Of a stretch of 64,000 nt of DNA, positions 5,804-56,435 are shown piece after piece. This DNA is from Candidatus Enterousia sp. (GTDB lineage: Bacteria > Pseudomonadota > Alphaproteobacteria > Rs-D84). Position 1 is the stretch's first letter, and every line of letters starts with the position of its first letter. The notes under the pieces are model-generated. The model was not told the origin of the DNA and did not search any database. It was given only the letters and a program-made list of their open reading frames with translations. Both the position numbers and the translations under genes were made by a program. Where the stretch lies: positions 195,136 to 259,135 of the forward strand of contig JAZKZR010000010.1 in NCBI GenBank assembly GCA_045612805.1. The letters run 5' to 3'.

Positions 5804-5900
5804 GAAACTCTCCCCCTATTTATCGTTCATTTTATCATAATTTTATGTCGCCCGCAAGATTTATTGTTGATTTTGGAATTTTTATTGCTATGATAACCCT

Positions 5901-16435: not shown

Positions 16436-16461
16436 ATAACGGCAATCGCCGTTATTTTTTA
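16436..16461. terminator. Bidirectional terminator between the ACP gene and the convergent helicase gene
   Basis: aacggc-aatc-gccgtt hairpin followed by a run of six T. Confidence 0.5.
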
Positions 16462-25700: not shown

Positions 25701-28700
25701 TCAATGGCGATGGAAAATGTGTTTATACAATCCAGTGTGATTTGTGTCAAACATCTGGGGTATACGGTTGTTATACCCATGATCCTATTTCCAACGGCCA
25801 GTTCACAATAACCGACGACCAATATGATGCTGATGCCCTTGAGGGTGTGTCCTGTACCCCGGCTGATTTCTGCGTCACATTAGATAGTAACGGCGGCAAT
25901 GGCGGTATTGGAACATTGTGTGAAACATATGGCGAAGGGTGGCATAAATCTGGTTCAGAAGGTTTTATTGATTCTTTGGAATCCAGTGACCTACCAACAT
26001 GGTTAAACAACAGCCAGGTGTTTGCTGGTTATTGGACTTTGCAAAACGGCGGCAATATGGAAATTGATCCAGAAGGGGCAATTGTGGCAAACAATACCAT
26101 ACTGGAAGATAATAACCAAACATGGTACGCGCATTGGGGCGATGGTACCGGATACACGGTTACATTCGAATGCGATGGTGATACTCAGTGGACCGAAACT
26201 CTACTGGTGTACCCAACACAAGACATAGAGGTTCCACAAACACAATGTTTGCGCACTGGTTATACATTTACCAATTGGGTGGATACGCCCCATAGTGTCA
26301 CAATTCCTGCAAACAACCAAACATTCAATTGGACCGGCGAATTTAATTCTGTCCTAACCCCAGATTGGACGGCGAACACTTATAGTGTGACCTATAAATG
26401 CGGTGAAGACGATACCGGTGTCACGGATCCGACAGCGGCGGAATTCGACCATGATTACTATGTGCAACCGCATAACGATAATATTGTTCGTTGTGCCGAA
26501 CCAGAAGGCAAGGTATTTGTAAAATGGTCATTAAATACGACACCAGACGCAACCTTGATTGCAGAGGATCAAAATACCACATGGACATATGATATATCCA
26601 ACCCAACCTTTACCGCCCAATGGACGGACGGGTGTTATGAGGTAACTTTCAATAATGATCGGCACGGTGGGCAACCTATTATCAGTACGTTAAAATTTTA
26701 CAAACAAGGCACGAGATGGTACGCCAATACCGAGGCAAAGTGTGATGGCGATTCTATAAGTCCAAGTGTGGCAGGTATGTTACCGACCAAGGAACATGCA
26801 AGCTTTATCGGATATGACGATGAGGATGGAACAGACCAACGTATTTTTGATGGCAATGGTTATCCTACGTATGCCGCATCCAGTTGGACAATTACGAGGG
26901 CTACAGTTCTGTATGCACAATACGATTGTGATGCTGGTTATACATTAAGTGGAACAACGTGCGTCTTGGATTCTTCGAATTTCCACACGATAACCCTTGA
27001 CAAAAATGCCGGAGAATTTTATGGCGTAGCCAGTAATCCGAATGTTTTGTACACCATAGAGGGTACAGCCCAAGCTTACACTGATGAGGGACATAATGAT
27101 CCATTCTATAGTTTGAACGAGAATGGTTTCCCCCGCAAATATGCCAAAGTGACATTCCATTATTGCGATGGCACAAACAATTCTTGCGGTAACCCATCCA
27201 CACCTGATGAAACCAAAGATGCAGATTTCACATTTAATGGATTTTATGCCACAACGTCGGCCACAGGGGATCTGTATATAGCTCAGAACGGCTATATCAC
27301 TGGGTATGGAAACATTGCGGCGGGCGCGGCCACAAGCAATGAAACATGGTATGCAGCTTGGAACGGATACGGCACGCTGGATACATCTCGTTGGCCGGTT
27401 CCTGCCCAGATCCCCAATGGTTACGCTTTTGGCGGTTGGTATACGGAACCTAAGTGCGAGGGTACACTAATGTCATCTAGCACCCAATTTACCACCCCTG
27501 ACACCGACCTTTATGCCTGTTGGTCACAGAATGTATTCACCGTCACATACAATTGCGGCATTGGTACCGGCAGCGCTCAACCAGATACACAAAATCATCC
27601 GACCACTGGCAGTAACTATACTGTTTTACCGAACGGAACTGCAAACGGTGGGGTTGTGGATTGTAACTATACTGGCCAGGGTTTCGCCGGGTGGAAATTT
27701 AGTGAAAACACCGGTGTAAACACGTATAATGCTGGGGATACAATAACATGGCAGGCCGGTTATGGCAATGAGACCTTGACCGCCCAATACAGACGCTGTG
27801 AAACAAACGAAGTCCTTGTGAACGGCGTATGTTATCCGACGTGCAGTGACACAACTTGTACGGAACCAACGTCACAGAATTCACAGAGCCATTGCCCAAC
27901 GGATCGTATCCCACCGTATCCGCATGATGAAGTGGAATGTTCATATTCATGGGACAATATTTCGGGGTATTTGGATGGTGGCGTGTGTAAATATGCAAAT
28001 GGTGACAACCAAGGGCAACCGATAAACACGGGTGTTTGCCAAGAGAGTGTTGCATGTAACGATTCTGCCTATATCTGGAATTCGGACCCGAATGTGTGGG
28101 ACTGTGTGCCGAATACGAGTATCACTTACAATGTTCAATTCAAATGCAATGAGACAGACATTGCACCTATATCTGACTATAGTTTTAGTGTAAGTTATGG
28201 CGAGAGTATAACAGTCCCGTCAGATTCAGCTTGTCAAAGAACCGGGCATTCGTATAGCCAGTGGAAAGCCACACAATACAATAATCCCGCTACACTTCCT
28301 GCGCAGGGTACTACATATCAATATCCGTGGGAACAGACCCATGGTGAAACATTCATCGCAGATTGGACAAACAACCAATATAGGATGACATTGAATGCAA
28401 ACGGTGGAACACATAATGGTTCCGATCCTGTTACTGAATTGCTAGAGGTATTTGGTCAATATTTCTATAAGAACTCTGATATGAGTTCACCGATTGAATA
28501 CTTTACCACCAATCAATTACCAACAAATGGTACCCAACATTTCGCTGGTTACATGACGGATGGCGAAGAATCTAGAACAATGTATAATCCGATTAGTGGT
28601 AACTGGAGACTAGTTCAGCCAAACATAGCAGCTAACGAAACATGGTATGCGAAATGGAGTGTTTGTAATCCAGGTCAGTATTATTCGGATGGTCAATGCA

Positions 28701-31700
28701 ATGATTGCCCAACATCACATCCAAACTCTGATCCAACAACTGCAACCTCAATGAACGATTGTTATTACAATTGCGTGACTTGTACACAGTATTGTCCGGA
28801 TGACGAAGAAGGTGTCAATGATTGTTATGACTATAGTTCCGCCGGTCTGCCACAAAATGGTCACGCTAATTATCCTGGAAATACTTGCGTCGCAAATCCA
28901 GGTCAGGAACAAAATTGTAACTATAAGGTTAGTTGTGAAAGTGGCTATCACCCAACTGAAGATCAAAAGCATTGTATCGGGGACACTTATACAATAACAT
29001 TGAACAGTCATCGTGAAACTTCTGGTTATGGCCAGTATTATGGAAACGATAGTAGCCCAGCAAACCTTTTGGCGCGTCATGGGGAAAATGGTGGCGTCTG
29101 GTATGATGCTAACAACCAAATGGTTGTCGGGGATGCTTTAACTAGCAATCCATCCAAGTATGCAAATGTGACATTAAACGGAAATGGAGGTGAAATTTAT
29201 TGGAATAACAGTTGGACCGAGCATAATGTATCAACAACCGCGGCGTTCGAATTCCAAGGATTTTTCCGGAACCAAACAGGGGCAGATAATCCATACATTA
29301 ATAATTATGGTAAACTTACCACAGACGGAGAAAGTGCGGCCCGGACATATATAGGAAATCAGACATGGCACGCACAATGGACACATGCGTGTATAACACT
29401 GCCGAATGCACAACGCACGGGATATAACTTTACGGGATGGGTATTTGGTTCTGCTATCGGTGGCACATTTGCTGGAAACGCTGGTAGCACTGTTTGCAGT
29501 AACAACGGCATGCCACAGATGGCGGATATAACGATTACTGCAACATGGGACAACGGGGCAAATTATTCTATTTTGTATGATGATAACACCAGACCATTGC
29601 ACCTTGGCCTAAATGCTAATACTATCTGTTCGCCGACTTCTTATCAGTACGGCCAAGGCGCATCTATCGGTTGTAACTTATCTAGTTATGCTAGCCTCGA
29701 CACCCACGTTGTGTTCAAGGGGTGGTGCCTTGATGCAACAACCAATAATTGTTACGACACCACTCCGACATACTACACAATACCAAACAATGCGACCGGG
29801 AATTATACATTCTATGCATGGTGGGAATGTGAGAGAGGGTATGACTTGTCAAATGGTGTTTGCGTGCCAAATGCATCTGAACTATGCCCGGCGCAATTGC
29901 CAAGCAATTCGCATGCAACCCTGGCAACGGACGTAACGCCTAATCCATCCATAAATCAAAATGGTGATTGCGTGTATACTGTTCAATGTAATTCATGTAT
30001 TAATGAAAATAGCGCGTATGATTGCTATGTCTATAGCAGTGGCAATATCAACAGTATCAACACCAATGGTCGGTTCACAATTACTGGGGCCCAAGGTACC
30101 GCCGGTCAGAATGTGTTGAATAACGTTCGTTGTGAACCGGCAACATATACCGCGGTCTATAGATGTGGCGACGGGACTCCCACCAGTCCTTACTATGATA
30201 CAGACCATATCATAACATACAATGGTTCTTATACTGTGTTACCAAACGGAAGCGATGGTGTTGTGACATGTTCAAAGGATGGCGAAATGTTCAATCATTG
30301 GACATTCAACCTTAACTCTGGGATCCAATATATTGGCGGTGAATCAATAAATCCTTGGCGGTATCACGGGTCAACCGTTCCGACATTTATGGCGCAATAT
30401 GGTCAATGCCCAGAAGACGAAGTGATTGTTGATGGTGAATGCAAGAAAGAATGTATCGTACCTTGTACATGGCAAAATTATCCGGCAAATCCGGCGCCAT
30501 GTCCAAATCCGCCGTATCCAGCAGGAACCACGTGTCATTATATCGCTGGTACTAACCCGGCCTATGGTTATCGCCCCAATCCATCTAGTCGTCTGTGTTT
30601 AGACATTGATACGGGTGAACAAGTAGAAGCACAAACATGTAATGTGGATCCGACACAAGACCCAACTTGTCCGCCACACTATCATTGGAATTCGGGTACA
30701 TTCAGTTGTGATCCGGACGTTTATACCGTTACATTAGATCCAAATAGAGAAAGTTATCAAAATAATACAATAGTCCCTGGTTCGAATAATGTTAACGAGT
30801 TGAAGGAAAAATGGGAATACGGTTGGAGCAAAGACGGGGGCTATCAATTTGCAACGGATAGTTTAATCTTGAACACAAACACCGAAGTTCCGTATTGGAC
30901 CGATGGTACGAAAGTATTTGATGGTTATTGGACCACGCCAAGTGGTGGGTATCGGATGGTTCAGGCAAATGGTTCAGTTAGTCAAAATGGTTACCAACTC
31001 TTGCCGGCCACCACTATCACAAGCGATACGACATGGTATGCACGATATGTCGACAATCCGGGGCCATTTACGGTTACGTTCAGATGTGATCAGGATGGTG
31101 CAATTCTAAATACTCAAAACCCATCTTTTGGTGATTATATTGATGTTCTGGCAGCACCGCAATCGGCGTGCACGAATCACCCTGGGGAAACGTTCAATCA
31201 GTGGAGAATTGTTGCAAATGGTATGCTTATTCCGGATTGGTATAATGGTACTTCTGGCATGTATCCGTGGCAACTTCACGAAGGTTCACAGATTGTCCCA
31301 GATTGGCGACCGGTTTACAAAGTGACATTGGATAAAGGTGCCACTGATGCGGTAAACGGGAACGTTACAAGTTTGTGGGATGCGGTTGGTATCGGTTGGT
31401 ACACAAATAGCGGTTTAACAAATGGAGTCGATTCTCTTAGCGACTCTGATTTGCCGACACGCAGTAATTACACTTTTGCTGGGTACGTTGATAGTGTATC
31501 TGGAAACCAAAGGGGTCAGTTCGGTAGTAATAATACATGGGTGTTGCCGGAAACCACCGATCTGACCAGCAATGAAACCTGGAGGGCTGAATGGAGCCGG
31601 TGCCCCGATTATAATTATTACGAAAACAATCAATGCAAAGAGTGTGATTCGAATTATCACCAAAATCCGCATCCGGTGACCCATGAGGATTGTTATACGA

Positions 31701-34700
31701 ATTGCCAGGGATATTGTCAGACATCTGGATGTACAACGGGGCAAAATCATGTTATAGGGTGTGATTATATATCAGAATCATATACTGGGTTTATACATTG
31801 GCCGAATCCCATTAATGGTCAGTGTCCAAATTCTAATGGTGTTGTTCCATCATGTGATTATTGTGTTCGTTGCGAGGATGGTTGGGTTCAGGATCCTAAT
31901 AATTGTAAGCAGTGTATAGAAGATGCTCATTTTATTGTTACGTTGAATCCGCATTTGGTAAATAATACCCAGGGAAGTTACAGTAGTCCAAGGGCACTAT
32001 ATACATGGCATGGCAAGGGTGTTTATTTGTATGAGGACTATAGCCAATATCTGATGAACGGAAACCAAAATCCGCTTGTCAGTAATCCACAGACCTACGC
32101 GACCGTAACTTTTAACTTGAATGGTGACGGGGCTTGGCTTGATTGGGAAAATCAGCGCTATACAGATCCCGTGGATATAGACGTTCCACTTACTTATCTT
32201 GGATTCTATAAATCAGAAACCGATTCAGATATGGTTATAAACACTAATCGGTATATAGAACCCGCGGGTACGCAGGCCGGTAAAACCGCCACAGCTAATT
32301 TGGAATGGCATGCGCATTGGCAACCACGGCAAATAGGAACGGTAACAGGTTCTCAGCTTCCGCAACCGTCGCGTCCAGGATTCAATTTTGTCGGATGGTT
32401 TAATACATCTGCGTCCAATGGTGGCACTCAAATATATGCGACGACGGCGGCCGCCCAGAATATGACCGTGTATGCACGTTGGGAAAAGGCAAAATATTTC
32501 GTGAATTTGGATAAAAATGGTGGTCAATGGGGTTCTGATCCTGTATATAAGTTATGGGAATTGTATGGTACCGGTTGGTCCACAGAAGAAACTGGCCCAT
32601 TTGAACGTGATTTGGTTTTGGGTGAAAGTGAGCGTCCATCATATGTGGACAACAGCAAGGTGTTCAATGGTTATTGGACCGCCAGGAACAACGGCACCCA
32701 ACAGATCCGTGCCGATGGTTCCGTTGTCGATACGACCGCAACCGTACTTACCGTGAATAATACTACATGGTATGCACAATACGTCGATAATACAAATAAA
32801 TATACTATCACATTCAGGTGCAGCGAGAATGCATCCCCGATTCGCACATATCGTGTAAGTGGTGGTGAAAGTATAACTGTTCCGGCCAAATCAGAATGTC
32901 CGAACCCAGGTTATTCATTCACGAAATGGATGGGAAATCAAGGCACAAATTTCAATGCACGAGATAGTGAATATACAGTAATATGGGAAAGTTTTTCTGA
33001 TGCAGATTTTGTTCCAAATTGGAATAATGGGGATGTGTATCATGTGACATTACTTCAAAATGATGCGGATGCACCTGGTGAAGTACAGAATTTGTATGAA
33101 AAATACGCCAGTTGGTGGGCATTGGATCAGAATAATCAGTACCCGATGACATCGTTAAGTGGCGATCAATTGCCGACCAAAACAGGTTACGATTTCGCTG
33201 GGTTTAAAACCAGAATTGGGGGATATACAAGGGGTGATTTTGACTCTGAAAGTAATGTATGGGTACCACAGTCAAATAGAGAAATAACCAATGACGAAGA
33301 ATGGGTTCCTAAGTGGACACAATGCAAACCGTATTGGTATTATGATAACGTTCAAAAGATATGCAAGGAATGTCCAGCCCCATACACCAATAACGAACAT
33401 CCAGAATCGTTGGCGGATTGCTATGATGGTCGGTGCGAGCTGCGCTGTATTGAAAGCGCGATCGAATGTCCGACCGATCCAAATGCGATTGAATTTGAAT
33501 ACAGCAATGACGTATATTCGGGAACAAATTATTATCAAAATCATTGTGTGTTGGATATATGGGTACAACAGGGCGCTCAACAAGAAGTGATACCAAGTTG
33601 TGAATGCACAATAAAAACCTGTAAACCTGGCTATCACCCTGTCAATGGTGACTGTGTTGAGTATGTCAAGACGGATATTGTGCTTAGTCCAAACGGGGGT
33701 GCGTGGGCTTCAAATGTCCCGTACGAATATAGGTACCTTTACACAATCGAAAGTACCGGTGTGTATCGTAATTCTGCAAGGACAGAAGAAATGACACCCG
33801 ACAATAACATGCCTTTACATGCAATTCCGTCGAATGGCGTGTCGATAACACTTGATGCCAATGATGGAAGCGTGACATGGGGTGGCGGAACAGGTGAGAT
33901 TCTAAATCGTAACGCTGCATTTGAATTCCTCGGGTTCTATAATTCTCAAGCCCCGGGTTTTGCGGCACCGTATATACTGCCACGGGAAATAAACGGTGAA
34001 ACATATGCCTTTATCACCACTGGTGGGCAATCAGCTGGTATGGGATACACGACAACACCACATACATGGTATGCACAATGGAATCGGTCGGTTACATTAC
34101 CCACGCCGGAACGCCAGAATTATACGTTCGTTGGGTGGACGTATAACGGGGAGTTGATATCTAATCCTTGGACGGTGCCTGGGAACACCACGAACGTAAC
34201 CTTGATTGCACGATGGACCAAGAATAATGGCACCATTGTGGCATACAAGTGTGACGATGGTGATGGTGGTATTGGTGGCACTGGTTATGATACGCTACAT
34301 CCGGCATATTTTGGTGAAAATTATAATGTTTTGCCAAACGGAATTGTAAACGGGGGTGTTGTGAATTGTTCAAAGCCGGCCAATATAACCCTGGGAAGAA
34401 GATATCATGAATTTGAAGATTGGGTATTCAGTGATGATTATGCGCATTATGATCCAGGTGAAATCAATTGGACTTTTAACGTGGATAACCCGACATTTAC
34501 TGCGAACTATGAAGAATGTCCAAATGGGTGGTATTTTGATGGTTCGTGCAAACAGTGCCCGACTGGTTATACCAGTTCTGATATAGATGCAGATAGTGCA
34601 ACCAAGTGTTATAAAACGTGCGATGTTCCATGTACACGACCGACGTCACAGTGTCCTATGAATGAAGAGGGGGTTCTTACATGCACTTATCCTAATAACA

Positions 34701-37700
34701 CATATCCGCTTGGTAAACAATATAGTGGCAGTGATGATTGCGTATATGATGGAACCGCGCCTGCTTGCGAACCGTTCACAATCATGTGCAAACCTGATTA
34801 TACGCCAGATTACTATCTTAGCACGGATACCGGAACACATTGTACAAAATTGGATCAATATGAAATTACATTGGATCAGAATGGTGGTACGGGTGGACAA
34901 GATAAAATCTATACGATTTATAATACCGGCGTATACCGTGACGCAGGACGGATTTATAGTATGACACAATACCCATTGTTAAATTTGCCATCAAAGTCCG
35001 TTAACGTAACATTTAATTCTTGTGATAATAATGATCCAAATTGTGAAGGTGCAACTGTTTGGGAAAGACCGGTTGATCTGGAGTTCAAAGGATATTATCA
35101 AACTGCATCGAACAATTCGCAATACATATATGCAACTGGATTAATCACATCAACAGGTCTGGCCGAAGGTAAGTCATATACGGACAATAATCAAACTTGG
35201 TACGCTCAATGGAATTCTGGTACAGTTGACTCCGATAAATGGCCTTTGCCGCCAACACGTCCGAGTGCGTGCGCAACATACAGTTTCCATGATTGGTATA
35301 CCGAAATAAATGGTGGGACACCGGTTTCGTATAACACACAGGTATCCGAAGATGTGACATGGTACGCCCATTGGTGCGAAAGTTGCCCGACCAGGGCAAT
35401 AGACCACGGTTCGTGCACTGCGCAAAATTGCAAGGCCGAATTTAAGTGTGACGACGGGTACGATTGGAATTCGGGTAGTTGCACTTGCACCCCAACAACC
35501 GGATTGACCCTAACATATCAACCAAATGGTGGCGTTGCGCGCAACGGTGTTGAACTTGTGCAACAAATGACATTTGAACAATCATTTACAACACTTGGCG
35601 GAAATGATATTACCATGGCGGGCAATATAAATTGTAAATGGGATACGGTATCTGGTGGTCAATTCCCATTATTAGATCACGAATATACCTATAATCAAAA
35701 TGGTAATACCGTGTTAAAAGCCCATTGGGCAGCATGCACGTGCGAGGCGGGCAATGGTGTTCAATCTTGTTCCACAAACGTTATAGATAATACCTGTGTT
35801 CCAACCGTTACGTGTCAGGGCGGATATATCCCCGTTACACCATACGGAATCAGTGAGGAATGTGGTAATAAGGTCACTGTTAGCTGCACTAAATGCCCGG
35901 CCGGAACATATCAAAATGGTAACCAATGTTCACCATGCGATGGAAACACTGTGTCCGCGGCGGGCGCAACCCAGTGCGAACCGTGTGACCCCGGTTATAC
36001 CGCCAATGCGGAACATACACAATGCGTGGGTAACCCGATCACAATCAATTGGGATGAAAACGGCGGAAATGCAATACCTGATGGTTCTTGTGTATATGGT
36101 CAAACGTTTACGTTGGCGAATGCACCGGAGCACAGCAACAGGGCTATGCAATTCCTTGGGTGGAAATTGTTTACGGGTGATAGTACTTATCCGGCCGGGA
36201 CAAACGTAATGTGTACATATGACAATGTCGGTGTTTACAGTGAAACAAGTACCAAAATCCAGGCACAATGGAACGAATGCCAGTGTTCGGATCAATTGAA
36301 TCCGCATGTGGCGTGGTGTCAGGCATGGTTTGCAGACGGCGAATGTAAGTATATGAATGGATGTGATGCCGGATACGAACCTGATCCGTTAACGGTGTAT
36401 ACCCCGGCTGCGGTATGTAAACCGAAAAATTACAATATAACATATAACTGTGGTGATGGAATTGGCATCCCAGAATATCTGACAGACAGTGCCACATTCA
36501 ATGAAAATTATACTGTAAAGGGACGTGGCACCTGTCAAATGACTGGGTTCAACTTTGCGGGTTGGAAACTCAGTGCTAACAGCCAAACTTATCAACCAGG
36601 ATATAGGTTTGAACCGTGGAATTTCACACAACAAAATCCAACCTTTACCGCACAATATAGTCAATGCGCGGCTGGCGAGGTATGGGTAGATGGCGCATGC
36701 GAACCATGTACTTGCTCACAGGATAATTGGAGTTCTGGTGTCGCATCATGTACGGCAAGTCCATCGTCGATTAGCACCTGTTCTGCGGTTGTCACATGTG
36801 AAACAGGTTATAATAATCCGCAAGGGAATTGCGATGGTGCGACATGTTCGGCCCAGTGTGACCAGATTCAATCCAATGCCATTTATGAATGTGGAATTGG
36901 TGCAACGGGAACACCGCCGGCCACGGAAACGATGAACTATGGTGCGACACACACGGTCAAAGGCCAGACAAGTTGTGCCAAATCGGGTTATACCTTTAAC
37001 GGTTGGAATTTTACTGGGACAAATAAAAATTATAACCCCGGCGCAACGGTCCAATGGAATTATGGAACGGATCAAACCTTTACGGGGAATTGGTGCGAAA
37101 ATTGCGGCAATGTTGCAAACGGAACTTGTTCACTGAATGCAACCTTCGCTGGTTCTTGTTCGTATGATTGTTCTTGTGAACCTGGATATAGACTGGTTGG
37201 TGGTGTATGTACCGCGCACCCGGTATGCGAACCTGATGATTCATTAACAATCACATATCAGCCAAATGGTGGTATGAATAATGGCGTCCTTGGGCAACCG
37301 GTGATACAAAATGTCACATATGGTGCCGGGTTTATAACCAAACCGGGAACCATATTTACCAAGGAAAACAGTATTATCACCGCATGGGATCATGTCGAAG
37401 GTGGCAATTATCCAGAATTGAATCGTTGGTATGTGTATGATACCGATATTGACACCATATTGAGTGCACATTGGGAACAGTGCACATGCACTGCGGGCAA
37501 CGGCGTGTCATCTTGTACAACAAGTTCTACAAGTGAAAATGCTTGCGCTTGTGCTGGTGAATGTGCTGCTCGTTACATAAACGGCGGTTGTAGTTGCAAC
37601 GGAACAAGTACCTGCACGCAAACTTGTACGGAATGTCCGGCCGGGTACATATCAAATGCAGATCAAACAGAATGTGTTATTTGTCCAGAAAACACGTATC

Positions 37701-40069
37701 AATCGGGCAATACTTGTGAACAGTGTCCAACTGGTTACACATCGCCGGCGGGTTCAACGTCGGTTGAAGATTGTTATAATAATCCGATATCATATACGGT
37801 GCATTATTCTTCAAACAATGGTTTGGATCAGACGGAAACTCAACCTGTTGTGTATGGGACAACGTTTACAACCCTTGGCGGAACGACATTCACGTATGAT
37901 AACCACATTATGACCCGTTGGAATAAAATAAGTGGTGGTGACTATACAGAATTGTCGCACCCATACGAATATGGTGTCCAAGAAGATACGTTCCTAAAGG
38001 CACAATGGGCAGAGTGTACATGTGCTACGGGCAATGGTGTGTCGTCTTGTACAACAAGTTCTACAAGTGAAAATGCTTGCGCTTGCACGGGCGAATGCGC
38101 CGCGGGTTATGTAAAGGGTGAGTGTTCTTGCTCTGGAAATACATGCACGCAATCTTGCACAAAGTGCGCGGATAATCAGGTTGAAATAAACGGTGTTTGT
38201 GTTGATTGCTCTTGTTCGGCCGATGGTGATGGGGTTGTTTCGGGATGCGGATTTGTATCAAACGAAAATAACGTTTGCCATTGGGGTCCAACAACTTGCG
38301 GTACAGGATACGGTAATCCTGGGGATCTTAGCTGCGATGATTCTGTACATAATAATAACTGTAGAGCAATATGCAGCCAGATTCAGTCCAATGCAATCTA
38401 TGAATGTGGGACTGGAATGGGTATTCCACCGGTTAGTGAACTTGTTGATTATGGCACACAGTATATCATCAAGGCCAATGCCGCGGTTTATGGGTGCCAT
38501 CGTGACAATTCCAGATTTGCGGGTTGGGAATTCGACGGAACCCAGAAACCATACTGGCCGGGCGATACGGTTACATGGAATTATACAGAAGATAGGCACT
38601 TCCGCGCGGTGTATTGCAATGAGTGCTTGACGGGCGATCATTGTACTTTGGACATACCTAATCCTGGTGAATGTGTGGTGACCTGTCATACAGGATATGA
38701 ATGGGATGCCAACCTGAAAAAGTGCGTGGCGAAAACATATGAAAACGGTATCACATACAAACCAAATGGTGGAACGCCAAATCAGAATTATACGCAATCT
38801 GTGATATATGATGCACCGTTCACAACGCTTGATTGGAACACGGAACATTATACCAAGGCGCACCATATCTTAAAACGTTGGGATGTTGAATCCGGTGGTG
38901 CGGGAACATTTAATGGTGGTTATGCCGCCCTTGGTACGGAATACACATATCATACGGACGGCGCAACATCGTTGTTGGCTGAATGGATAGAATGTGGTAT
39001 CAATGAAATATCATTGGATAATCAGTGTCAACAGTGCCGTTGTACCGATAATAACGCAGGTGTGACATCTTGTGAAACAAGTGCCACGAATAATGACACT
39101 TGCAGTTGTTCGGGCGAATGTGCCGCGGGGTACATAAACGCCGGTTGCAATTGCAACGGAACCAACTGCACACAATCTTGTACAAAGTGCGCAGATAACC
39201 AAGTTTCGGTAAACAATGCTTGTGAAAATTGCGTGTGCGAGAAAAACATTGATGGCATAGAGGGCATCATTTCAGGTTGCGGATTTGTGTCAAACAATGG
39301 CAATACATGTAACTGGGATCCGACAACTTGCAGATTGGGGTATGGTTATCCGGATTTGACCTGTACGGAAACCGAACATAACAATAATTGCACCGCATCG
39401 TGCACGATATGCCCGGCCGGCACATATGGCGATAATGGCATTGAATGCAAACTGTGTCCAGAAGGCAAAACATCTTTGGCCGGCGCAACATCAATAAGGG
39501 AATGCTTTATTGATCCAAACAGTTGCGCGCCGGATGAACACATCGAACACGGCGAATGTGTAAGCAATAAGCGTGCATGTTCTATACCAGATGCAACCAG
39601 TGCGGTTCGTATATGGAATCCGGCAATCGGAACATACGGCCCATGCACGGTTGAGGTTGATGGCTGTAATTCGGGTTATCATGTTTCCGGCAACGCGTGT
39701 GTCCGGGATACCTGCACCGTTGCACACGGCAGTGCCGAAAGCGAATATAGCGGTGGCCGATGGGAATGCTTTGTGACAAAGTGTGATCCGGGTTATGAAC
39801 CAAGTTCGGATTACAAGTCCTGTGTTGAATGTGCGAATCGTTATGTTGATGGCGATGTCGCGGTCAGCAGTTATGTATCCGAATGCGAAATCGCCGCATG
39901 TATGTACCAGGGTCAAAAGTATGCGTTGCAAAATGGCGAATGCGTCCCGATTTGTACCGCGGATAGGTTTACCCGTGAAGATCCGAGCAATCCAACTGGT
40001 ACAATACAATGGGATGAACGCACCAAGAAATGTATCCGAACCTGTAACCCGGGATACAAGATGTGGTAA
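19703..40069 (+). CDS. Giant (6788 aa) secreted Cys-rich mosaic protein: about 40 Listeria-Bacteroides (Flg_new/InlB B-repeat-like) units, ephrin-receptor-like (GCC2_GCC3-type) units and EGF-like Cys knots. Putative adhesin or surface fibril
   Basis: Single open frame of 20367 nt with the ribosome-binding site AGGGAGA. Signal peptide MKKFAKILGFLGFFVTVATVQIGTAWA. Recurring ...GYTFxGW...(T/L)(W/L/F)YAQ(W/Y) units. Motifs such as CPAGTYQNGNQCSPCDGNTVSAAGATQCEPC. Several hundred Cys. No LPXTG, RTX, autotransporter barrel or T9SS C-terminal domain is recognisable. Confidence 0.9.
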   Translation: MKKFAKILGFLGFFVTVATVQIGTAWADGQYCGYGYDGYYGLGREQSDCYKCAEDFNNYPNSTGGYNFSGNLCYSACSGTCIDANSSFQNGGTYGIPATSTFFVSRLNNGTQNSLLNISGLTCNNIGNYCAEVFDCGKNACSANWKTINFVDHNNTPLGTLYIVYGMIWSTQQTTQCDDCAGNSLNYAVFYPVFQTPTAPTREGYTFLGYSDSQTGGIIRIGPDHSNMYGKLNYNNATSISGISGNTITLYARYENAGCAQNYWYNSQTDECIPCAEGFTSPGGYGNQHTCTKSCSETCTQRHNSTDECAEGVTGFYSPIVPITGKEYEDDQGHCYDNNNIEILAPDNDLTEAHWCQWNCDGCKDEQCYTFVEGACEPKIWNAMYDCDDGTNVITDTNYPESYGNYIIADFSCQGQNGQTFIGWTLGSGGIVYNHDDPEHDELTWGCGHQTFKPVFEDTCYEVSFNDETNGGHPNNQNGTHGPFYKKYNDTQYNWYTNSKCTEKVNGGNPSVANNLPWKEHATFTGYYDETQNPDLKIFAGDNDTPQGGLTNDGTSWTIDGNTVLYAQYTCVEGYTPDANGDCVGDKIDVKYTCVSPVDGDEPEQHTFNDDATYGTAYPVKYVGTGSNHNVQCAFTGYELDTDYVWKLQDYSGNPDNPNGEYGPGADAGNTLLSTDWQYITTTPLTEIEFILDKSLWHLKTYNVEYRCGEIKPDADVYTDSSATYGQTYNVAGQFDPIGGNAVTVQDFLDNNCKPNGGFGAWTFQNWTFTCDGADSGPYDTNDPTFGPWTYDSNNCYFTANWAQTDFVIILDQNGGTDGNPSDYLYTRKNIGVYLDSARTLKMLPDHESNANPLTPPQKTINITIYPDSTHDGTGASFTYNGTIYGYNGANNYANIDENLDFMGYYQNILSNPEKYIDPYEGKGYITGEGIAAGKTYDENYTVPQRTWVAHWGTYELTLPSTATWNGHDFDGWECVDDEDTVVYSCGTNQSCQVTVSENITCTAQWSVACRNVLFDDTTNGEPSSPTNGGNSGRFSKVAGQAGWYQGTECAGNSYTPSVADRIPTKTNGHFIGYNTAVDGTGNEIFDEFGVVTTYGNQTWAPVDTPTLYAQYECDAPYHLDTNPNSETAGQCVACAPGTFYDPNEANPAKQCKNCNQYISDNGVAGAGAYTWTSRPPYNWSIKQCYRTCGSGVGIQETCAEVPTVSGHNEMEQFLGDCEGCTPTGKQISFYGNEFATDPNNRVNTCDANVGAINCPQGFLAGGASGANKLMAAAVDFYEDRDLNGTYEPNGKRYIVGRRIATNDVYKLDTGFVWSQVVGDAQLEGNTEGNPGTISIIYPATLAPTVADPEHHTFAGYGYPEDAPSSQVFVDNNYSLTSGSNGNASSIISFANDHSYTNMSPIIGNSSYTRNLYAQYTAADSYTLTYLCNGVETPSTDHQVTGLYVGTQFNLITPDWCTGCYEFTGWWDGSQTITPDQFTNFTWIYNSDKTFIARCAESKDKFIIYNKIPVDDVNEDGTTNNGNTYVPAEDGTPTTFTCGSEITSITGHPQLKNSDNVVIGTVIEWCTDSDLEECDSPLELQNSNCNDKNVYAKWECTDPRYHLNENKDDCVACNAGEYWDATTQKCESCSEATGGNFPYSTPGFNWSVDQCYNYCNTNLTCDDASLNGIYDGEYANCQFTKIDNTNKQIEFYGNHRTSVTACNGTDTVRYCAYGFAGCGTPNALIKPVTVQVDFKKTTNDTVGQRYIFGSRSGNGNNIDVNPSTAKIWSQIVGQGQQEQVSGGNYSYTHIIYPTYTAPAANQIGQDFTGYYYPENDGTRYVEYDLGLDATNAQSVLQDQSGSISAPRSLFAKYCSNGQEWNGSACIGTDYTVKYICGAHGTAPGEMTNTATSGQSYMVAALEGGATATCTANTDTGYVLKMNNNKPVWKFNGNDREYFTGEVINQWNFTIQSPTFTAQYDCAAGYTWNTDGTACVSISDIACPAELSENSHASLVGEPSINGDGKCVYTIQCDLCQTSGVYGCYTHDPISNGQFTITDDQYDADALEGVSCTPADFCVTLDSNGGNGGIGTLCETYGEGWHKSGSEGFIDSLESSDLPTWLNNSQVFAGYWTLQNGGNMEIDPEGAIVANNTILEDNNQTWYAHWGDGTGYTVTFECDGDTQWTETLLVYPTQDIEVPQTQCLRTGYTFTNWVDTPHSVTIPANNQTFNWTGEFNSVLTPDWTANTYSVTYKCGEDDTGVTDPTAAEFDHDYYVQPHNDNIVRCAEPEGKVFVKWSLNTTPDATLIAEDQNTTWTYDISNPTFTAQWTDGCYEVTFNNDRHGGQPIISTLKFYKQGTRWYANTEAKCDGDSISPSVAGMLPTKEHASFIGYDDEDGTDQRIFDGNGYPTYAASSWTITRATVLYAQYDCDAGYTLSGTTCVLDSSNFHTITLDKNAGEFYGVASNPNVLYTIEGTAQAYTDEGHNDPFYSLNENGFPRKYAKVTFHYCDGTNNSCGNPSTPDETKDADFTFNGFYATTSATGDLYIAQNGYITGYGNIAAGAATSNETWYAAWNGYGTLDTSRWPVPAQIPNGYAFGGWYTEPKCEGTLMSSSTQFTTPDTDLYACWSQNVFTVTYNCGIGTGSAQPDTQNHPTTGSNYTVLPNGTANGGVVDCNYTGQGFAGWKFSENTGVNTYNAGDTITWQAGYGNETLTAQYRRCETNEVLVNGVCYPTCSDTTCTEPTSQNSQSHCPTDRIPPYPHDEVECSYSWDNISGYLDGGVCKYANGDNQGQPINTGVCQESVACNDSAYIWNSDPNVWDCVPNTSITYNVQFKCNETDIAPISDYSFSVSYGESITVPSDSACQRTGHSYSQWKATQYNNPATLPAQGTTYQYPWEQTHGETFIADWTNNQYRMTLNANGGTHNGSDPVTELLEVFGQYFYKNSDMSSPIEYFTTNQLPTNGTQHFAGYMTDGEESRTMYNPISGNWRLVQPNIAANETWYAKWSVCNPGQYYSDGQCNDCPTSHPNSDPTTATSMNDCYYNCVTCTQYCPDDEEGVNDCYDYSSAGLPQNGHANYPGNTCVANPGQEQNCNYKVSCESGYHPTEDQKHCIGDTYTITLNSHRETSGYGQYYGNDSSPANLLARHGENGGVWYDANNQMVVGDALTSNPSKYANVTLNGNGGEIYWNNSWTEHNVSTTAAFEFQGFFRNQTGADNPYINNYGKLTTDGESAARTYIGNQTWHAQWTHACITLPNAQRTGYNFTGWVFGSAIGGTFAGNAGSTVCSNNGMPQMADITITATWDNGANYSILYDDNTRPLHLGLNANTICSPTSYQYGQGASIGCNLSSYASLDTHVVFKGWCLDATTNNCYDTTPTYYTIPNNATGNYTFYAWWECERGYDLSNGVCVPNASELCPAQLPSNSHATLATDVTPNPSINQNGDCVYTVQCNSCINENSAYDCYVYSSGNINSINTNGRFTITGAQGTAGQNVLNNVRCEPATYTAVYRCGDGTPTSPYYDTDHIITYNGSYTVLPNGSDGVVTCSKDGEMFNHWTFNLNSGIQYIGGESINPWRYHGSTVPTFMAQYGQCPEDEVIVDGECKKECIVPCTWQNYPANPAPCPNPPYPAGTTCHYIAGTNPAYGYRPNPSSRLCLDIDTGEQVEAQTCNVDPTQDPTCPPHYHWNSGTFSCDPDVYTVTLDPNRESYQNNTIVPGSNNVNELKEKWEYGWSKDGGYQFATDSLILNTNTEVPYWTDGTKVFDGYWTTPSGGYRMVQANGSVSQNGYQLLPATTITSDTTWYARYVDNPGPFTVTFRCDQDGAILNTQNPSFGDYIDVLAAPQSACTNHPGETFNQWRIVANGMLIPDWYNGTSGMYPWQLHEGSQIVPDWRPVYKVTLDKGATDAVNGNVTSLWDAVGIGWYTNSGLTNGVDSLSDSDLPTRSNYTFAGYVDSVSGNQRGQFGSNNTWVLPETTDLTSNETWRAEWSRCPDYNYYENNQCKECDSNYHQNPHPVTHEDCYTNCQGYCQTSGCTTGQNHVIGCDYISESYTGFIHWPNPINGQCPNSNGVVPSCDYCVRCEDGWVQDPNNCKQCIEDAHFIVTLNPHLVNNTQGSYSSPRALYTWHGKGVYLYEDYSQYLMNGNQNPLVSNPQTYATVTFNLNGDGAWLDWENQRYTDPVDIDVPLTYLGFYKSETDSDMVINTNRYIEPAGTQAGKTATANLEWHAHWQPRQIGTVTGSQLPQPSRPGFNFVGWFNTSASNGGTQIYATTAAAQNMTVYARWEKAKYFVNLDKNGGQWGSDPVYKLWELYGTGWSTEETGPFERDLVLGESERPSYVDNSKVFNGYWTARNNGTQQIRADGSVVDTTATVLTVNNTTWYAQYVDNTNKYTITFRCSENASPIRTYRVSGGESITVPAKSECPNPGYSFTKWMGNQGTNFNARDSEYTVIWESFSDADFVPNWNNGDVYHVTLLQNDADAPGEVQNLYEKYASWWALDQNNQYPMTSLSGDQLPTKTGYDFAGFKTRIGGYTRGDFDSESNVWVPQSNREITNDEEWVPKWTQCKPYWYYDNVQKICKECPAPYTNNEHPESLADCYDGRCELRCIESAIECPTDPNAIEFEYSNDVYSGTNYYQNHCVLDIWVQQGAQQEVIPSCECTIKTCKPGYHPVNGDCVEYVKTDIVLSPNGGAWASNVPYEYRYLYTIESTGVYRNSARTEEMTPDNNMPLHAIPSNGVSITLDANDGSVTWGGGTGEILNRNAAFEFLGFYNSQAPGFAAPYILPREINGETYAFITTGGQSAGMGYTTTPHTWYAQWNRSVTLPTPERQNYTFVGWTYNGELISNPWTVPGNTTNVTLIARWTKNNGTIVAYKCDDGDGGIGGTGYDTLHPAYFGENYNVLPNGIVNGGVVNCSKPANITLGRRYHEFEDWVFSDDYAHYDPGEINWTFNVDNPTFTANYEECPNGWYFDGSCKQCPTGYTSSDIDADSATKCYKTCDVPCTRPTSQCPMNEEGVLTCTYPNNTYPLGKQYSGSDDCVYDGTAPACEPFTIMCKPDYTPDYYLSTDTGTHCTKLDQYEITLDQNGGTGGQDKIYTIYNTGVYRDAGRIYSMTQYPLLNLPSKSVNVTFNSCDNNDPNCEGATVWERPVDLEFKGYYQTASNNSQYIYATGLITSTGLAEGKSYTDNNQTWYAQWNSGTVDSDKWPLPPTRPSACATYSFHDWYTEINGGTPVSYNTQVSEDVTWYAHWCESCPTRAIDHGSCTAQNCKAEFKCDDGYDWNSGSCTCTPTTGLTLTYQPNGGVARNGVELVQQMTFEQSFTTLGGNDITMAGNINCKWDTVSGGQFPLLDHEYTYNQNGNTVLKAHWAACTCEAGNGVQSCSTNVIDNTCVPTVTCQGGYIPVTPYGISEECGNKVTVSCTKCPAGTYQNGNQCSPCDGNTVSAAGATQCEPCDPGYTANAEHTQCVGNPITINWDENGGNAIPDGSCVYGQTFTLANAPEHSNRAMQFLGWKLFTGDSTYPAGTNVMCTYDNVGVYSETSTKIQAQWNECQCSDQLNPHVAWCQAWFADGECKYMNGCDAGYEPDPLTVYTPAAVCKPKNYNITYNCGDGIGIPEYLTDSATFNENYTVKGRGTCQMTGFNFAGWKLSANSQTYQPGYRFEPWNFTQQNPTFTAQYSQCAAGEVWVDGACEPCTCSQDNWSSGVASCTASPSSISTCSAVVTCETGYNNPQGNCDGATCSAQCDQIQSNAIYECGIGATGTPPATETMNYGATHTVKGQTSCAKSGYTFNGWNFTGTNKNYNPGATVQWNYGTDQTFTGNWCENCGNVANGTCSLNATFAGSCSYDCSCEPGYRLVGGVCTAHPVCEPDDSLTITYQPNGGMNNGVLGQPVIQNVTYGAGFITKPGTIFTKENSIITAWDHVEGGNYPELNRWYVYDTDIDTILSAHWEQCTCTAGNGVSSCTTSSTSENACACAGECAARYINGGCSCNGTSTCTQTCTECPAGYISNADQTECVICPENTYQSGNTCEQCPTGYTSPAGSTSVEDCYNNPISYTVHYSSNNGLDQTETQPVVYGTTFTTLGGTTFTYDNHIMTRWNKISGGDYTELSHPYEYGVQEDTFLKAQWAECTCATGNGVSSCTTSSTSENACACTGECAAGYVKGECSCSGNTCTQSCTKCADNQVEINGVCVDCSCSADGDGVVSGCGFVSNENNVCHWGPTTCGTGYGNPGDLSCDDSVHNNNCRAICSQIQSNAIYECGTGMGIPPVSELVDYGTQYIIKANAAVYGCHRDNSRFAGWEFDGTQKPYWPGDTVTWNYTEDRHFRAVYCNECLTGDHCTLDIPNPGECVVTCHTGYEWDANLKKCVAKTYENGITYKPNGGTPNQNYTQSVIYDAPFTTLDWNTEHYTKAHHILKRWDVESGGAGTFNGGYAALGTEYTYHTDGATSLLAEWIECGINEISLDNQCQQCRCTDNNAGVTSCETSATNNDTCSCSGECAAGYINAGCNCNGTNCTQSCTKCADNQVSVNNACENCVCEKNIDGIEGIISGCGFVSNNGNTCNWDPTTCRLGYGYPDLTCTETEHNNNCTASCTICPAGTYGDNGIECKLCPEGKTSLAGATSIRECFIDPNSCAPDEHIEHGECVSNKRACSIPDATSAVRIWNPAIGTYGPCTVEVDGCNSGYHVSGNACVRDTCTVAHGSAESEYSGGRWECFVTKCDPGYEPSSDYKSCVECANRYVDGDVAVSSYVSECEIAACMYQGQKYALQNGECVPICTADRFTREDPSNPTGTIQWDERTKKCIRTCNPGYKMW
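23030..25260 (+). repeat. Internal duplication of a roughly 260-300-aa super-module within the giant gene
   Basis: YECDAPYHLDTNPNSETAGQCVACAPGTFYDP...LYAQYT (about 23030-23940) parallels ECTDPRYHLNENKDDCVACNAGEYWD...LFAKYC (about 24480-25260), with the same domain order. Confidence 0.6.
35500..39520 (+). repeat. C-terminal tandem array of roughly 180-aa modules (B-repeat unit plus a CTCxxGNGVSSCTTSSTSENACAC...TQSCTxC Cys-rich unit), with a 41-nt identical DNA tract shared between copies
   Basis: At least five modules. The stretch tcttgtacaacaagttctacaagtgaaaatgcttgcgcttg at about 37510 is identical to the one at about 38047. The corresponding protein segments are near-identical. Confidence 0.65.
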
Positions 40070-52509: not shown

Positions 52510-52652
52510 ATTTTCCCCCTTTGGTTGATTGCATGGTATCAAATACGCGCGTCGTTTTCCCCAAGATAGAATTCTTATGCAATCTATACACATACTAACA
52601 CTTGAATTATTTTTTTGTTGGTGGTATCATGAAATTCCAAAAGGAAAAAGAA

Positions 52653-56331: not shown

Positions 56332-56435
56332 TTTTTTTATTAAACAAAAAGCCCTTGTATTAATTTTTGTTATTTAGTATATTGCCATCACAATAGGGGA
56401 AAGGGGTTAATTTACTGTATTTGCGGGTATCAGAT

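Follow-up and report, generated by a model that had tools for sequence, protein, structure and literature searches.

The locus raises the question of whether three cysteine-rich segments of a giant bacterial protein are genuine ephrin-receptor-like modules, what they would do there, and whether they say anything about a eukaryotic origin or a host-associated life. The sequence-only reading had quoted three peptides with the spacing of the ephrin-receptor-like (GCC2_GCC3) repeat; all three occur exactly in the translation of a single open reading frame (ORF, 19703-40069) of the window (the whole 64,000-nucleotide stretch that was analysed), within 1-6 nt of where they had been placed. We consider it likely that the segments are genuine ephrin-receptor-like modules in a Sec-exported, multi-domain surface or extracellular protein, working as disulfide-braced rods that belong to a bacterial module repertoire.

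19703..40069, + strand: giant ORF (6788 aa, 339 Cys) with the modules, >26 domains resembling the InlB B-repeat (Flg_new), stalks rich in cysteine and, at the C-terminus, a conserved domain
19703..19783, + strand: Sec-type signal-peptide-like N-terminus MKKFAKILGFLGFFVTVATVQIGTAWA, then DGQ, read straight off the translation
35894..36025, + strand: module 1 (aa 5398-5441), made up of a complete unit CPAGTYQNGNQCSPCDGNTVSAAGATQC and, after it, half a unit EPCDPGYTANAEHTQC
37634..37774, + strand: module 2 (aa 5978-6024), half a unit followed by a complete one
39410..39505, + strand: module 3 (aa 6570-6601), a single complete unit CPAGTYGDNGIECKLCPEGKTSLAGATSIREC
39524..40066, + strand: cysteine-rich C-terminal domain (aa 6608-6788), ending in ...CIRTCNPGYKMW, common to P0002, P0048, P0049, P0050 and P0051

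The modules were scanned against Pfam as isolated pieces of 58-68 aa and also in contexts of 260, 1207 and 2188 aa, and matches to PF07699 (Ephrin_rec_like, formerly GCC2_GCC3; SMART SM01411) were read against its gathering score of 23.1 bits. Module 2 gave the best PF07699 match of the three, with 37.2 bits (E 2.6e-9) over profile positions 1-48 of 48 as an isolated piece and 28.4 bits, still above the gathering score, in the 260-aa context. Module 3 reached 25.3 bits (E 1.3e-5) as a 58-aa piece and went unreported in the 260-aa context, where TNFR_ELAPOR1_6th scored 18.4 bits. Module 1, at 21.2 bits (E 2.5e-4) in isolation, lay just under 23.1 and was lost in the 260-aa context; on the isolated piece, TNFR_ELAPOR1_6th and NCD3G scored 22.4 bits each. 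Despite this sub-threshold score, module 1 is, by sequence, a copy, though divergent, of the module seen in 2 and 3; its unit is 41-49% identical to theirs. PF07699 was not reported in scans of the whole protein (in pieces), of the 1207-aa interval or of the 2188-aa piece; of families of this kind, these long-context scans gave TNFR_ELAPOR1_6th (PF23091) only, at 19-20 bits and under its cut-off, in three stretches that are the three modules (all PF23091 scores were 17-27 bits vs a cut-off of 33.2). The assignment to PF07699 stood for module 2, depended on the context scanned for module 3, and fell short for module 1 and in long contexts. None of the three modules matched TNFR_c6 (PF00020), with matches accepted up to E 10.

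The framework C-x2-G-x-[YF]-x(3-6)-C-x2-C-P-x-G-...-C is present in 3/3 modules. A strict form of the motif occurs three times in the giant protein vs 0 in 1000 residue shuffles, and a loose form nine times vs a shuffle mean of 0.24 (maximum 3). The modules account for about 370 of the 3621 nt that the earlier reading had flagged; the remainder codes for InlB B-repeat (Flg_new) domains and for further stretches of stalk rich in cysteine. Each canonical module caps a repeated super-unit that runs from an InlB B-repeat (Flg_new) beta domain through a cysteine-rich beta-hairpin stalk to the module. At the DNA level the stalk (CTC..GNGV.SC...C.C.GECA.GY..G.C.C) is coded by an internal repeat, and six or seven divergent copies of the module (type B), each of which opens a cysteine-rich linker, lie upstream of the canonical ones.

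37466..37604, + strand: DNA-level internal repeat coding the cysteine stalk, reference copy
38000-38138: stalk repeat copy, 79% identical to the reference copy
39023-39161: stalk repeat copy, 60% identical to the reference copy
20477..20575, + strand: divergent type B module (aa 259-291)
24539..24655, + strand: divergent type B module (aa 1613-1651), TNFR_ELAPOR1_6th E 0.0054
28664..28762, + strand: divergent type B module (aa 2988-3020), which alone has no Pfam match
31601..31693, + strand: divergent type B module (aa 3967-3997)
33323..33421, + strand: divergent type B module (aa 4541-4573)
34517..34609, + strand: divergent type B module CPNGWYFDGSCKQCPTGYTSSDIDADSATKC (aa 4939-4969), which alone has no Pfam match

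By hhalign the type B and canonical modules are related (97.7%, E 1.9e-12), and the type B profile alone found nothing significant in the PDB.

A sequence profile of 11 modules was searched against PDB sequences and matched the Chlamydomonas mastigoneme protein Mst1, which is labelled an "ephrin type A/B receptor-like domain-containing protein" (E 1.2e-23), ELAPOR1 (E 4.5e-9), thyroglobulin (E 0.0046) and the cysteine-rich domain (CRD) of EphA2 (E 0.0067). In the alignments with Mst1 and ELAPOR1, agreement extends to signature residues other than cysteine (P-x-G-T-Y, C-P-x-G, S-x-x-G-A-T-S). We then computed an AlphaFold2 model of one stalk together with its module:

37472..37792, + strand: segment used for the model (aa 5924-6030), made of a cysteine-rich beta-hairpin stalk and, after it, module 2

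The model consists entirely of beta-hairpins (mean pLDDT 84.2, pTM 0.64; module 2 part pLDDT 78-94). The best 20 Foldseek matches in the PDB comprised thyroglobulin, OX40, the CRDs of EphA2 and EphA4, mastigoneme and the cysteine-rich domain of the sweet receptor (class-C GPCR), and ELAPOR1 with further TNFR-superfamily members followed at ranks 27-36. The statistics were weak (probability up to 1.00, but E 0.012-0.4, none <= 0.001), a consequence of the small size and elongated shape of the domain. The top viral fold match was a giant-virus protein annotated as ephrin-receptor-like (TM 0.52, rmsd 3.7 A). With these weak statistics, the modules are predicted to have a TNFR-like fold of stacked, disulfide-braced beta-hairpins. 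The GCC2_GCC3 spacing read from the letters was accordingly borne out by the isolated Pfam matches, the profile search and the fold matches, and the expectation that a modelled module would find TNFR/Eph-type cysteine-rich folds came true for module 2.

Along the whole protein, Pfam scans in three pieces found only Flg_new, Flg_new_2 and TNFR_ELAPOR1_6th, together with two chance-level sub-threshold matches (DUF4892, Znf_XAF1_N; E 0.08-0.9). PF09479 (Flg_new) scored 60.7 and 34.1 bits in 2/3 pieces (cut-off 27), and TIGR02543 scored 30.7 and 22.9 bits (cut-off 20.95). The List_Bact_rpt repeat was the sole match of the NCBIfam scan; neither the modules nor the C-terminal domain gave any. With a self-built HMM, about 26-30 Flg_new copies were counted along the entire protein; on the top 150 matches from the protein search the same HMM found only 3 and missed the Flg_new of P0062, and it is therefore unusable as a bacterial/eukaryotic classifier. 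The C-terminal domain (aa 6608-6788) had no Pfam, NCBIfam or PDB sequence match, and its model, of low to medium confidence, gave a weak fold match to an EGF string (Pfs25-like).

By eye, the N-terminus has a basic N-region, a hydrophobic core and an AWA motif, from which we infer export, including passage across the outer membrane. Within the 64-kb window we found no gene for a secretion system, an anchor or a Dsb protein, so the cellular location is read from the N-terminus alone. The giant gene adjoins mlaE, a position kept in a relative. Eukaryotic contamination of the contig was considered and rejected, since the neighbouring genes encode Obg, a Lon-like protein, TsaB, MlaEFD, RNase E/G and AmiC. 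A protein identical to the ORF product is present in an NCBI-derived collection (329,866-bp contig), and the plasmid collection held no match.

Orthologues at 75-86% identity were found in P0002, P0048, P0049 and L007. Across five orthologues (69-86% identity), 90 of 95 cysteine columns (95%) are invariant vs 477 of 902 columns of other residues (53%), and module 3 is kept in four orthologues. Two relatives (P0050 and P0051) have more modules and the same C-terminal domain. The precomputed Pfam annotation of the homologues lists PF09479 only, because the modules are few and divergent. Whole-protein Pfam annotation thus overlooks such modules in long cysteine-rich proteins, and counts of the domain in bacteria are probably too low.

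The modules were compared with known systems that use the same building block. The Eph receptor CRD (EphA2, PDB 8trs/3mbw) has the same cysteine spacing and signature residues. The ephrin ligand-binding domain, fibronectin-III, transmembrane helix, tyrosine kinase and SAM of Eph receptors were all unfound by Pfam in the giant protein, whose modules, unlike those of Eph receptors, are single or 1.5 units set between bacterial B-repeat domains. We therefore rejected an Eph-receptor homologue; what the two share is a building block. ELAPOR1 (KIAA1324/EIG121, PDB 9vqm; PF23091), the second-best solved match, is a eukaryotic endosomal membrane protein and differs in having a mannose-6-phosphate-receptor-like domain. 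Mst1 (PDB 8tx1, 8wa2) is both the best solved-sequence match, with several modules, and a fold match. In its extracellular filament, Ig-like beta domains are followed by cysteine modules in tandem, whose disulfide ladder gives robustness (PMC10602792). By analogy, the Mst1 shaft is the closest guide to how the modules of the giant protein probably work. Mst1 differs in that it comes from a eukaryote, is glycosylated and polymerises as the subunit of a filament, and has its modules in a tandem array and a polyproline tail, whereas the giant protein sets single modules among >26 InlB B-repeats and has no sign of polymerisation. In architecture it is the same as the bacterial giant Flg_new (PF09479/TIGR02543) surface proteins that also contain PF07699 (L016, P0062), and it is among the largest of them.

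Most likely, the modules serve a giant adhesin as rigid spacers braced by disulfides or as surfaces for binding. After export, the cysteines would be oxidised into a ladder of disulfides, and each module would become a short, stiff, protease-resistant rod. Such rods would keep the B-repeat domains apart and make their chain stiffer, in what would be a long fibrillar adhesin or a protein of the surface coat. The modules might themselves serve as binding surfaces. As a counterpoint to the disulfide model, some 170 disulfides (~170) would be needed, which would be awkward in a reducing habitat. The rumen is strongly reducing.

Two other explanations of the cysteine pattern were weighed against disulfide-braced modules. 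One is convergence or composition: linkers rich in Cys, Gly, Thr and Pro, with CxxC spacing, would score on cysteine-rich profiles with no homology to PF07699. The absence of PF07699 from whole-protein scans would fit this, as would the scores of NCD3G, EGF_laminin, VSP and DUF7630 on isolated module pieces, the match of the module profile to the zinc-ribbon ribosomal protein eL37 (E about 0.02) and the weak Foldseek E-values. Mere composition, however, does not account for a match of module 2 that spans the full profile and stays above the cut-off in the 260-aa context, for signature residues other than cysteine shared with Mst1 and ELAPOR1, for a strict motif absent from all 1000 shuffles, or for the fact that NCD3G and TNFR_ELAPOR1_6th, families related to PF07699, match alongside it on every strong bacterial array scanned. 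We regard convergence as largely refuted and very improbable. The eL37 match also bears on the second explanation, in which the CxxC...CxxC pairs bind zinc or another metal as zinc-ribbon-like knuckles in place of disulfides. This would fit a reducing anaerobic habitat such as the rumen, and a MopE-type metal-binding cysteine repeat stands beside PF07699 in a Deltaproteobacteria MAG protein. The matches to disulfide-bonded extracellular modules (Mst1, ELAPOR1, EphA2 CRD) are far stronger, though, the predicted fold resembles those modules and not zinc ribbons, and the protein has a signal-peptide-like export signal; metal binding is accordingly a very doubtful substitute for disulfide-braced modules.

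To assess the spread of the modules, we searched with one narrow peptide pattern and found PF07699-type modules in at least 16 bacterial species genomes, a count that is a lower bound biased to gut Alphaproteobacteria, as the pattern was drawn from the Candidatus Enterousia lineage. Strong PF07699 arrays were present in Chitinophagaceae (268 bits) and in the Deltaproteobacteria MAG (214 bits, with CARDB and MopE domains), and in distant bacteria PF07699 is accompanied by the typically bacterial domains CARDB, MopE and Gly_rich_2. The pair of Flg_new and PF07699 recurs in a rabbit-gut Bacilli MAG (L016; 93.7 and 38.4 bits) and in the metagenomic protein P0062 (66 and 292 bits), the best match in an exhaustive search of 1.84 billion proteins. 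In the Candidatus Enterousia locus L008 both were sub-threshold (Flg_new 26.5 bits, cut-off 27; PF07699 17.9, cut-off 23.1). TNFR_c6 matches some other bacterial proteins (L019, L021, L016). The exhaustive search is of representatives and carries no taxonomy, and a word-indexed search with the module alignment gave 8 short fragments.

Lateral acquisition of the modules, or of the whole cysteine-rich C-terminal part, from a eukaryote (rumen ciliates, host) as mimics of receptor modules was weighed against this distribution. All named proteins among 20 sampled top matches are eukaryotic, with Cyanophora, Corallochytrium, bivalves and a dinoflagellate among the named high scorers, and the lineage shares animal guts with protists. 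The published view likewise has the domain arising in ancient eukaryotes and treats the bacterial case as horizontal gene transfer (PMC6993872), and the remark that it is mostly reported from eukaryotes agrees with both. That case, Ilumatobacter coccineum YM304_37510, is likened to ours by description: PF07699 stands beside an Ig/fn3-clan domain and the same question of origin arises. It was read as a transfer from Metazoa, with 53 prokaryotic proteomes as the data (PMC6993872), and the bacterial distribution found here is much broader; our literature search found no other paper on bacterial GCC2_GCC3 modules. Against such a transfer, the module region has the same GC (0.44-0.47) as the remainder of the window, module identity is 35-59% to bacterial and equally to eukaryotic modules and singles out no donor among eukaryotes, the modules are fused into a bacterial-type Flg_new architecture and duplicated internally, and the strong arrays of distant bacteria sit beside CARDB, MopE and Gly_rich_2. 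We hold acquisition from a eukaryote to be unlikely; an ancient transfer of modules 30-50 residues long may have occurred in either direction.

As judged from sequence comparison, the modules are part of a PF07699 repertoire found in bacteria, and nothing marks a recent acquisition from a eukaryote. Since the same modules are widespread in other bacteria, they are an ordinary building block of giant surface proteins and not evidence of host-derived genes. The step from modules to host association or lateral acquisition in the sequence-only reading is not supported, given the 16 bacterial genomes, the ordinary GC and the equal similarity to both sides. The lineage is associated with animal guts according to record titles (goat omasum, rumen, deer gut), which is knowledge from sample metadata and not from the modules, and no evidence pointing to an intracellular symbiont was found. 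The ephrin-receptor-like module recurs in large surface proteins of bacteria from several phyla, and its presence should not be taken as a sign that a protein is of eukaryotic origin or its bearer host-associated; knowledge of the domain family itself is unchanged by these results.

We see the giant protein as a candidate for an adhesin or a fibre of the surface, and as a possible handle on what this uncultured rumen alphaproteobacterium attaches to. A further reading, which we think improbable, is that Enterousia-like gut Alphaproteobacteria expanded giant, disulfide-rich, "eukaryote-like" surface proteins and attach with them to eukaryotic cells (rumen ciliates, fungi, host epithelium). If true, this would mean that a group known only from metagenomes lives as epibionts or in some other association with cells, and would demand an oxidative folding route functional in a reducing habitat. 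The parts of such an expanded family would be InlB B-repeats, ephrin-receptor-like and EGF-like modules, and a private C-terminal domain.

The window holds a single very long ORF (19703-40069, + strand, 6788 codons). All three peptides that the sequence-only reading had described in its product, hereafter the giant protein, as following the cysteine spacing of ephrin-receptor-like repeats were recovered exactly in the ORF translation:

35894-36025, + strand: module 1 (aa 5398-5441)
37634-37774, + strand: module 2 (aa 5978-6024)
39410-39505, + strand: module 3 (aa 6570-6601)

From a small HMM of modules 1-3 emerged a common 31-residue unit, C-P-x-G-T-Y-x(4-5)-C-x2-C-P-x-G-x-T-S-x2-G-[AS]-T-S-x3-C, with an extra half unit preceding module 2 and trailing module 1. 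The strict motif occurs 3 times in the giant protein versus 0 in 1000 shuffles, and a loose motif 9 times versus a shuffle mean of 0.24. Modules 1-3 cover only ~370 of the 3621 bases flagged in that reading.

Modules were scanned against Pfam as isolated 58-68-residue pieces, with the gathering score of PF07699 (Ephrin_rec_like, formerly GCC2_GCC3) at 23.1 bits. Module 2 scored 37.2 bits and aligned over the complete profile (E 2.6e-9; positions 1-48 of 48), module 3 scored 25.3 bits (E 1.3e-5), and module 1, at 21.2 bits (E 2.5e-4), stayed under that threshold; two related families, TNFR_ELAPOR1_6th and NCD3G, scored slightly behind. Within 260-residue pieces, module 2 remained above the gathering score (28.4 bits) and PF07699 was not reported for modules 1 and 3; scans of the 1207-residue interval and of a 2188-residue piece returned no PF07699, and TNFR_ELAPOR1_6th alone in three stretches (19-20 bits, under its cut-off). 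By the threshold set for the family, module 2 counts as a PF07699 member, and module 3 does so only when scanned in isolation; module 1 falls slightly short, yet is clearly paralogous to modules 2 and 3. The proposed profile match stands for isolated modules 2 and 3 and fails for module 1. Because the PF07699 result depends on context, the same check would be negative if the whole protein were simply submitted to it. This blind spot, in which PF07699 is seen in isolated modules and lost in 260-2188-residue cysteine-rich contexts, spans 35891-39511 and the homologues P0002 and P0048-P0053, whose precomputed Pfam annotation shows PF09479 only (one also PF07963). Bacterial occurrences of PF07699 are therefore likely under-counted in databases, and the demonstration that whole-protein Pfam scans miss ephrin-receptor-like modules is a useful by-product.

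A profile (A1) built from 11 modules of the giant protein and its relatives was run against the full set of PDB sequences. The best match was the Chlamydomonas mastigoneme protein Mst1 (E 1.2e-23), deposited as "ephrin type A/B receptor-like domain-containing protein"; ELAPOR1 (E 4.5e-9), thyroglobulin (E 0.0046) and the EphA2 cysteine-rich domain (CRD; E 0.0067) were also matched, and the non-cysteine signature residues agree in these alignments as well. An AlphaFold2 model of aa 5924-6030 (18-row alignment; mean pLDDT 84.2, module 2 at 78-94) consists of beta-hairpins. In the fold search, a check proposed by the sequence-only reading, Foldseek ranked TNFR/Eph-type CRDs from the PDB highest: thyroglobulin, OX40, the EphA2 and EphA4 CRDs, the mastigoneme, class-C GPCR CRDs and ELAPOR1. 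None of these matches reached E ≤ 0.001 (range 0.012 to about 1), weak statistics that the small size and elongated shape of the domain would lead one to expect. A viral structure library gave as its top match a Pyramimonas orientalis virus protein annotated as ephrin-receptor-like (TM 0.52, rmsd 3.7 Å). Together with the isolated PF07699 matches, the profile-PDB matches, the model and the fold matches settle the ephrin-receptor-like identity of the modules, that is, PF07699-type homology and a TNFR-like fold class.

The giant protein itself belongs to the InlB B-repeat class of bacterial surface proteins. Its N-terminus, MKKFAKILGFLGFFVTVATVQIGTAWA, resembles a Sec signal peptide by inspection of the translation. 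Flg_new/InlB B-repeat domains (PF09479) were detected by Pfam and NCBIfam, and a self-built HMM placed ~26-30 of them along the full length. The 339 cysteines are concentrated in the linkers between B-repeats and reach 10-12% over the last 1000 residues. In the flagged region a super-unit is repeated in which a B-repeat is followed by a cysteine-rich stalk (CTC..GNGV.SC...C.C.GECA.GY..G.C.C...C) and capped by an ephrin-receptor-like module. Further features are as follows:

37466-37604, 38000-38138 and 39023-39161: DNA-level direct repeat, three stalk copies (60-79% identity)
35706-35777, 37452-37523 and 37986-38057: further copies of DNA-level direct repeats
20477-20575, 24539-24655, 28664-28762, 31601-31693, 33323-33421 and 34517-34609, also about aa 1150: divergent (type B) modules upstream of the flagged interval
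39524-40066: conserved cysteine-rich C-terminal domain (aa 6608-6788, last 181 residues), ending GYKMW, ...CIRTCNPGYKMW

The direct repeats encode a B-repeat end and the stalk after it, from which we conclude that the C-terminal part of the protein grew by internal duplication. The six or seven type B units (C-x2-G-x-Y-[YW]-x(3-5)-C-x2-C-x(12-25)-C-Y-x2-C) open cysteine-rich linkers at residues 259, about 1150, 1613, 2988, 3967, 4541 and 4939, each copy running through C-Y-x2-C into further cysteines. They have no Pfam match alone; profile-profile alignment with the canonical units by hhalign gave 97.7% and E 1.9e-12, so the module family spans the whole giant protein, not just its C-terminal part. 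The C-terminal domain is common to P0050 (1635 aa) and P0051 (1882 aa), more distant relatives that are otherwise very different. Sequence searches of Pfam, NCBIfam and the PDB gave no match to it. Its AlphaFold model (pLDDT 69, low to medium confidence) bears a weak likeness to the four-EGF string of Plasmodium Pfs25/Pvs25, and the domain might be a lineage-specific sorting or anchoring domain. An Eph receptor identity of the giant protein was ruled out, Pfam finding no ligand-binding, fibronectin-III, transmembrane, kinase or SAM domain in it.

Orthologues at 69-86% identity are present in other assemblies (P0002, P0048, P0049, and L007 from a goat-omasum MAG). Cysteine is invariant in 90 of 95 columns of their alignment versus 477 of 902 for other residues, the pattern expected for structural disulfides. 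Metal binding in place of disulfides is a poorly supported possibility, hinted at only by eL37 zinc-ribbon matches of profile A1 in the PDB (E 0.02). Rumen and gut habitats are strongly reducing, and about 170 disulfides would have to be kept there; no Dsb gene was seen in the 64-kb window. On the disulfide reading, the most likely one, the giant protein would be exported and its cysteines oxidised in the periplasm, each module becoming a rigid, disulfide-laddered rod; such rods would space and stiffen the long beta-domain chain of a fibrillar adhesin or surface coat, and the modules may themselves add binding surfaces. By analogy, they may work like the cysteine modules of Eph CRDs, Mst1 or ELAPOR1. 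Mst1, the best structural analogy, carries tandem ephrin-receptor-like modules after Ig-like domains, and its regular disulfide ladder is credited with filament robustness (PMC10602792).

PF07699 is treated as a domain of early-eukaryote origin and a bacterial example as horizontal transfer (PMC6993872). An exhaustive profile search of 1.84 billion representatives (8460 matches at E ≤ 1e-3) agrees that the domain is mostly reported from eukaryotes: all named proteins among 20 sampled top matches were eukaryotic (Cyanophora, Corallochytrium, bivalves). With one narrow peptide pattern (C[TVD][IK]C[PE][AE][GN][TY]Y), we nonetheless confirmed module relatives at 16 loci in 14 bacterial species-representative genomes. 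Pfam scans covered ten ORFs from these loci, and PF07699 scored as follows:

Chitinophagaceae MAG (L020): 268 bits, 13 stretches, with Laminin_G_3
Deltaproteobacteria MAG (L022): 214 bits, 11 stretches, with CARDB and MopE copper-binding repeats
Gut Alphaproteobacteria L021 (roe deer rumen; 7 stretches), L015 and L018: 117, 57 and 39 bits
MAG labelled 'bacterium' (L019): 80 bits
Gastranaerophilales: 60 bits
Bacilli MAG: 38 bits, with Flg_new and Gly_rich_2

The long tandem arrays of L020, L021 and L022 are far stronger bacterial examples than the giant protein. In P0062, the top match of the exhaustive search, PF07699 (292 bits) occurs together with Flg_new (66 bits), the same architecture as in the giant protein, and the combination is a recurrent bacterial one. 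The GC of the flagged region (0.44-0.47) equals that of the window, and a plasmid collection gave no match to the region. By alignment, modules 1-3 resemble eukaryotic modules (35-54 bits, 37-50% identity) no more closely than they do bacterial modules of other phyla (35-54 bits, 35-59% identity). Taken together, these observations give no sign of a recent acquisition; units of 30-50 residues are too short to resolve an ancient transfer, whichever its direction. The earlier suggestion that the modules indicate host association or lateral acquisition is therefore not upheld: the module alone says nothing about lifestyle, and the domain type, already known, occurs here in a bacterial giant protein that is new and uncharacterised.

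Gut association is known otherwise. The titles of related species genomes name goat omasum, rumen, roe deer rumen and colon, and water deer rectum as sources, and Candidatus Enterousia as an organism; Enterousia is classed among gut Alphaproteobacteria incertae sedis. Assemblies with names suggestive of rumen studies contain an identical RNase E/G. From these names the lineage is taken to be gut-lumen associated, and there was no sign of an intracellular symbiont. Bacterial genes of ordinary kinds flank the giant ORF: upstream lie obg, a Lon-like ATPase, tsaB, a PIF1-like helicase and an MFS transporter, and downstream mlaE, mlaF, mlaD, a lipoprotein, RNase E/G, an LPG-synthase-like membrane protein and amiC. 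In a relative, a gene of >4158 codons adjoins mlaE, so the position of the giant gene is conserved. Side observations on genes of the window:

16459-17730, - strand: PIF1-like/RecD-family helicase (PF05970, 95 bits), two genes upstream of the giant ORF, of a type less common in bacteria
51757-52593, - strand: 2-Cys/1-Cys peroxiredoxin (AhpC/TSA), near the giant ORF
56421-60125, + strand: second secreted-looking cysteine-rich protein (1234 aa, 56 Cys)
5900-6972, + strand: prfB (release factor 2), PCRF and RF-1 domains in ORF 6046-6972

The second cysteine-rich protein has FRSTF-type repeats in its N-terminal third, a ~230-aa cysteine-free middle region and a repeated ~95-aa unit (about eight copies by eye), C.GA.Y....C..CP.GY...C...C..GTY.A.A...C...G.GYY...YGS...R..CP.G..T...AS..C. 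Scanned whole it has no Pfam match, and the four units examined gave sub-threshold PF07699 scores singly (15.9-21 bits, E 3e-4 to 1e-2); modules of the same family, in a more divergent set, are probably present in this protein. prfB contains the classical programmed +1 frameshift site, CTT TGA C at 5964, where the upstream frame ends ...NLNNIRGFL-stop and the next frame goes on as DPDKLRTQIDDL...
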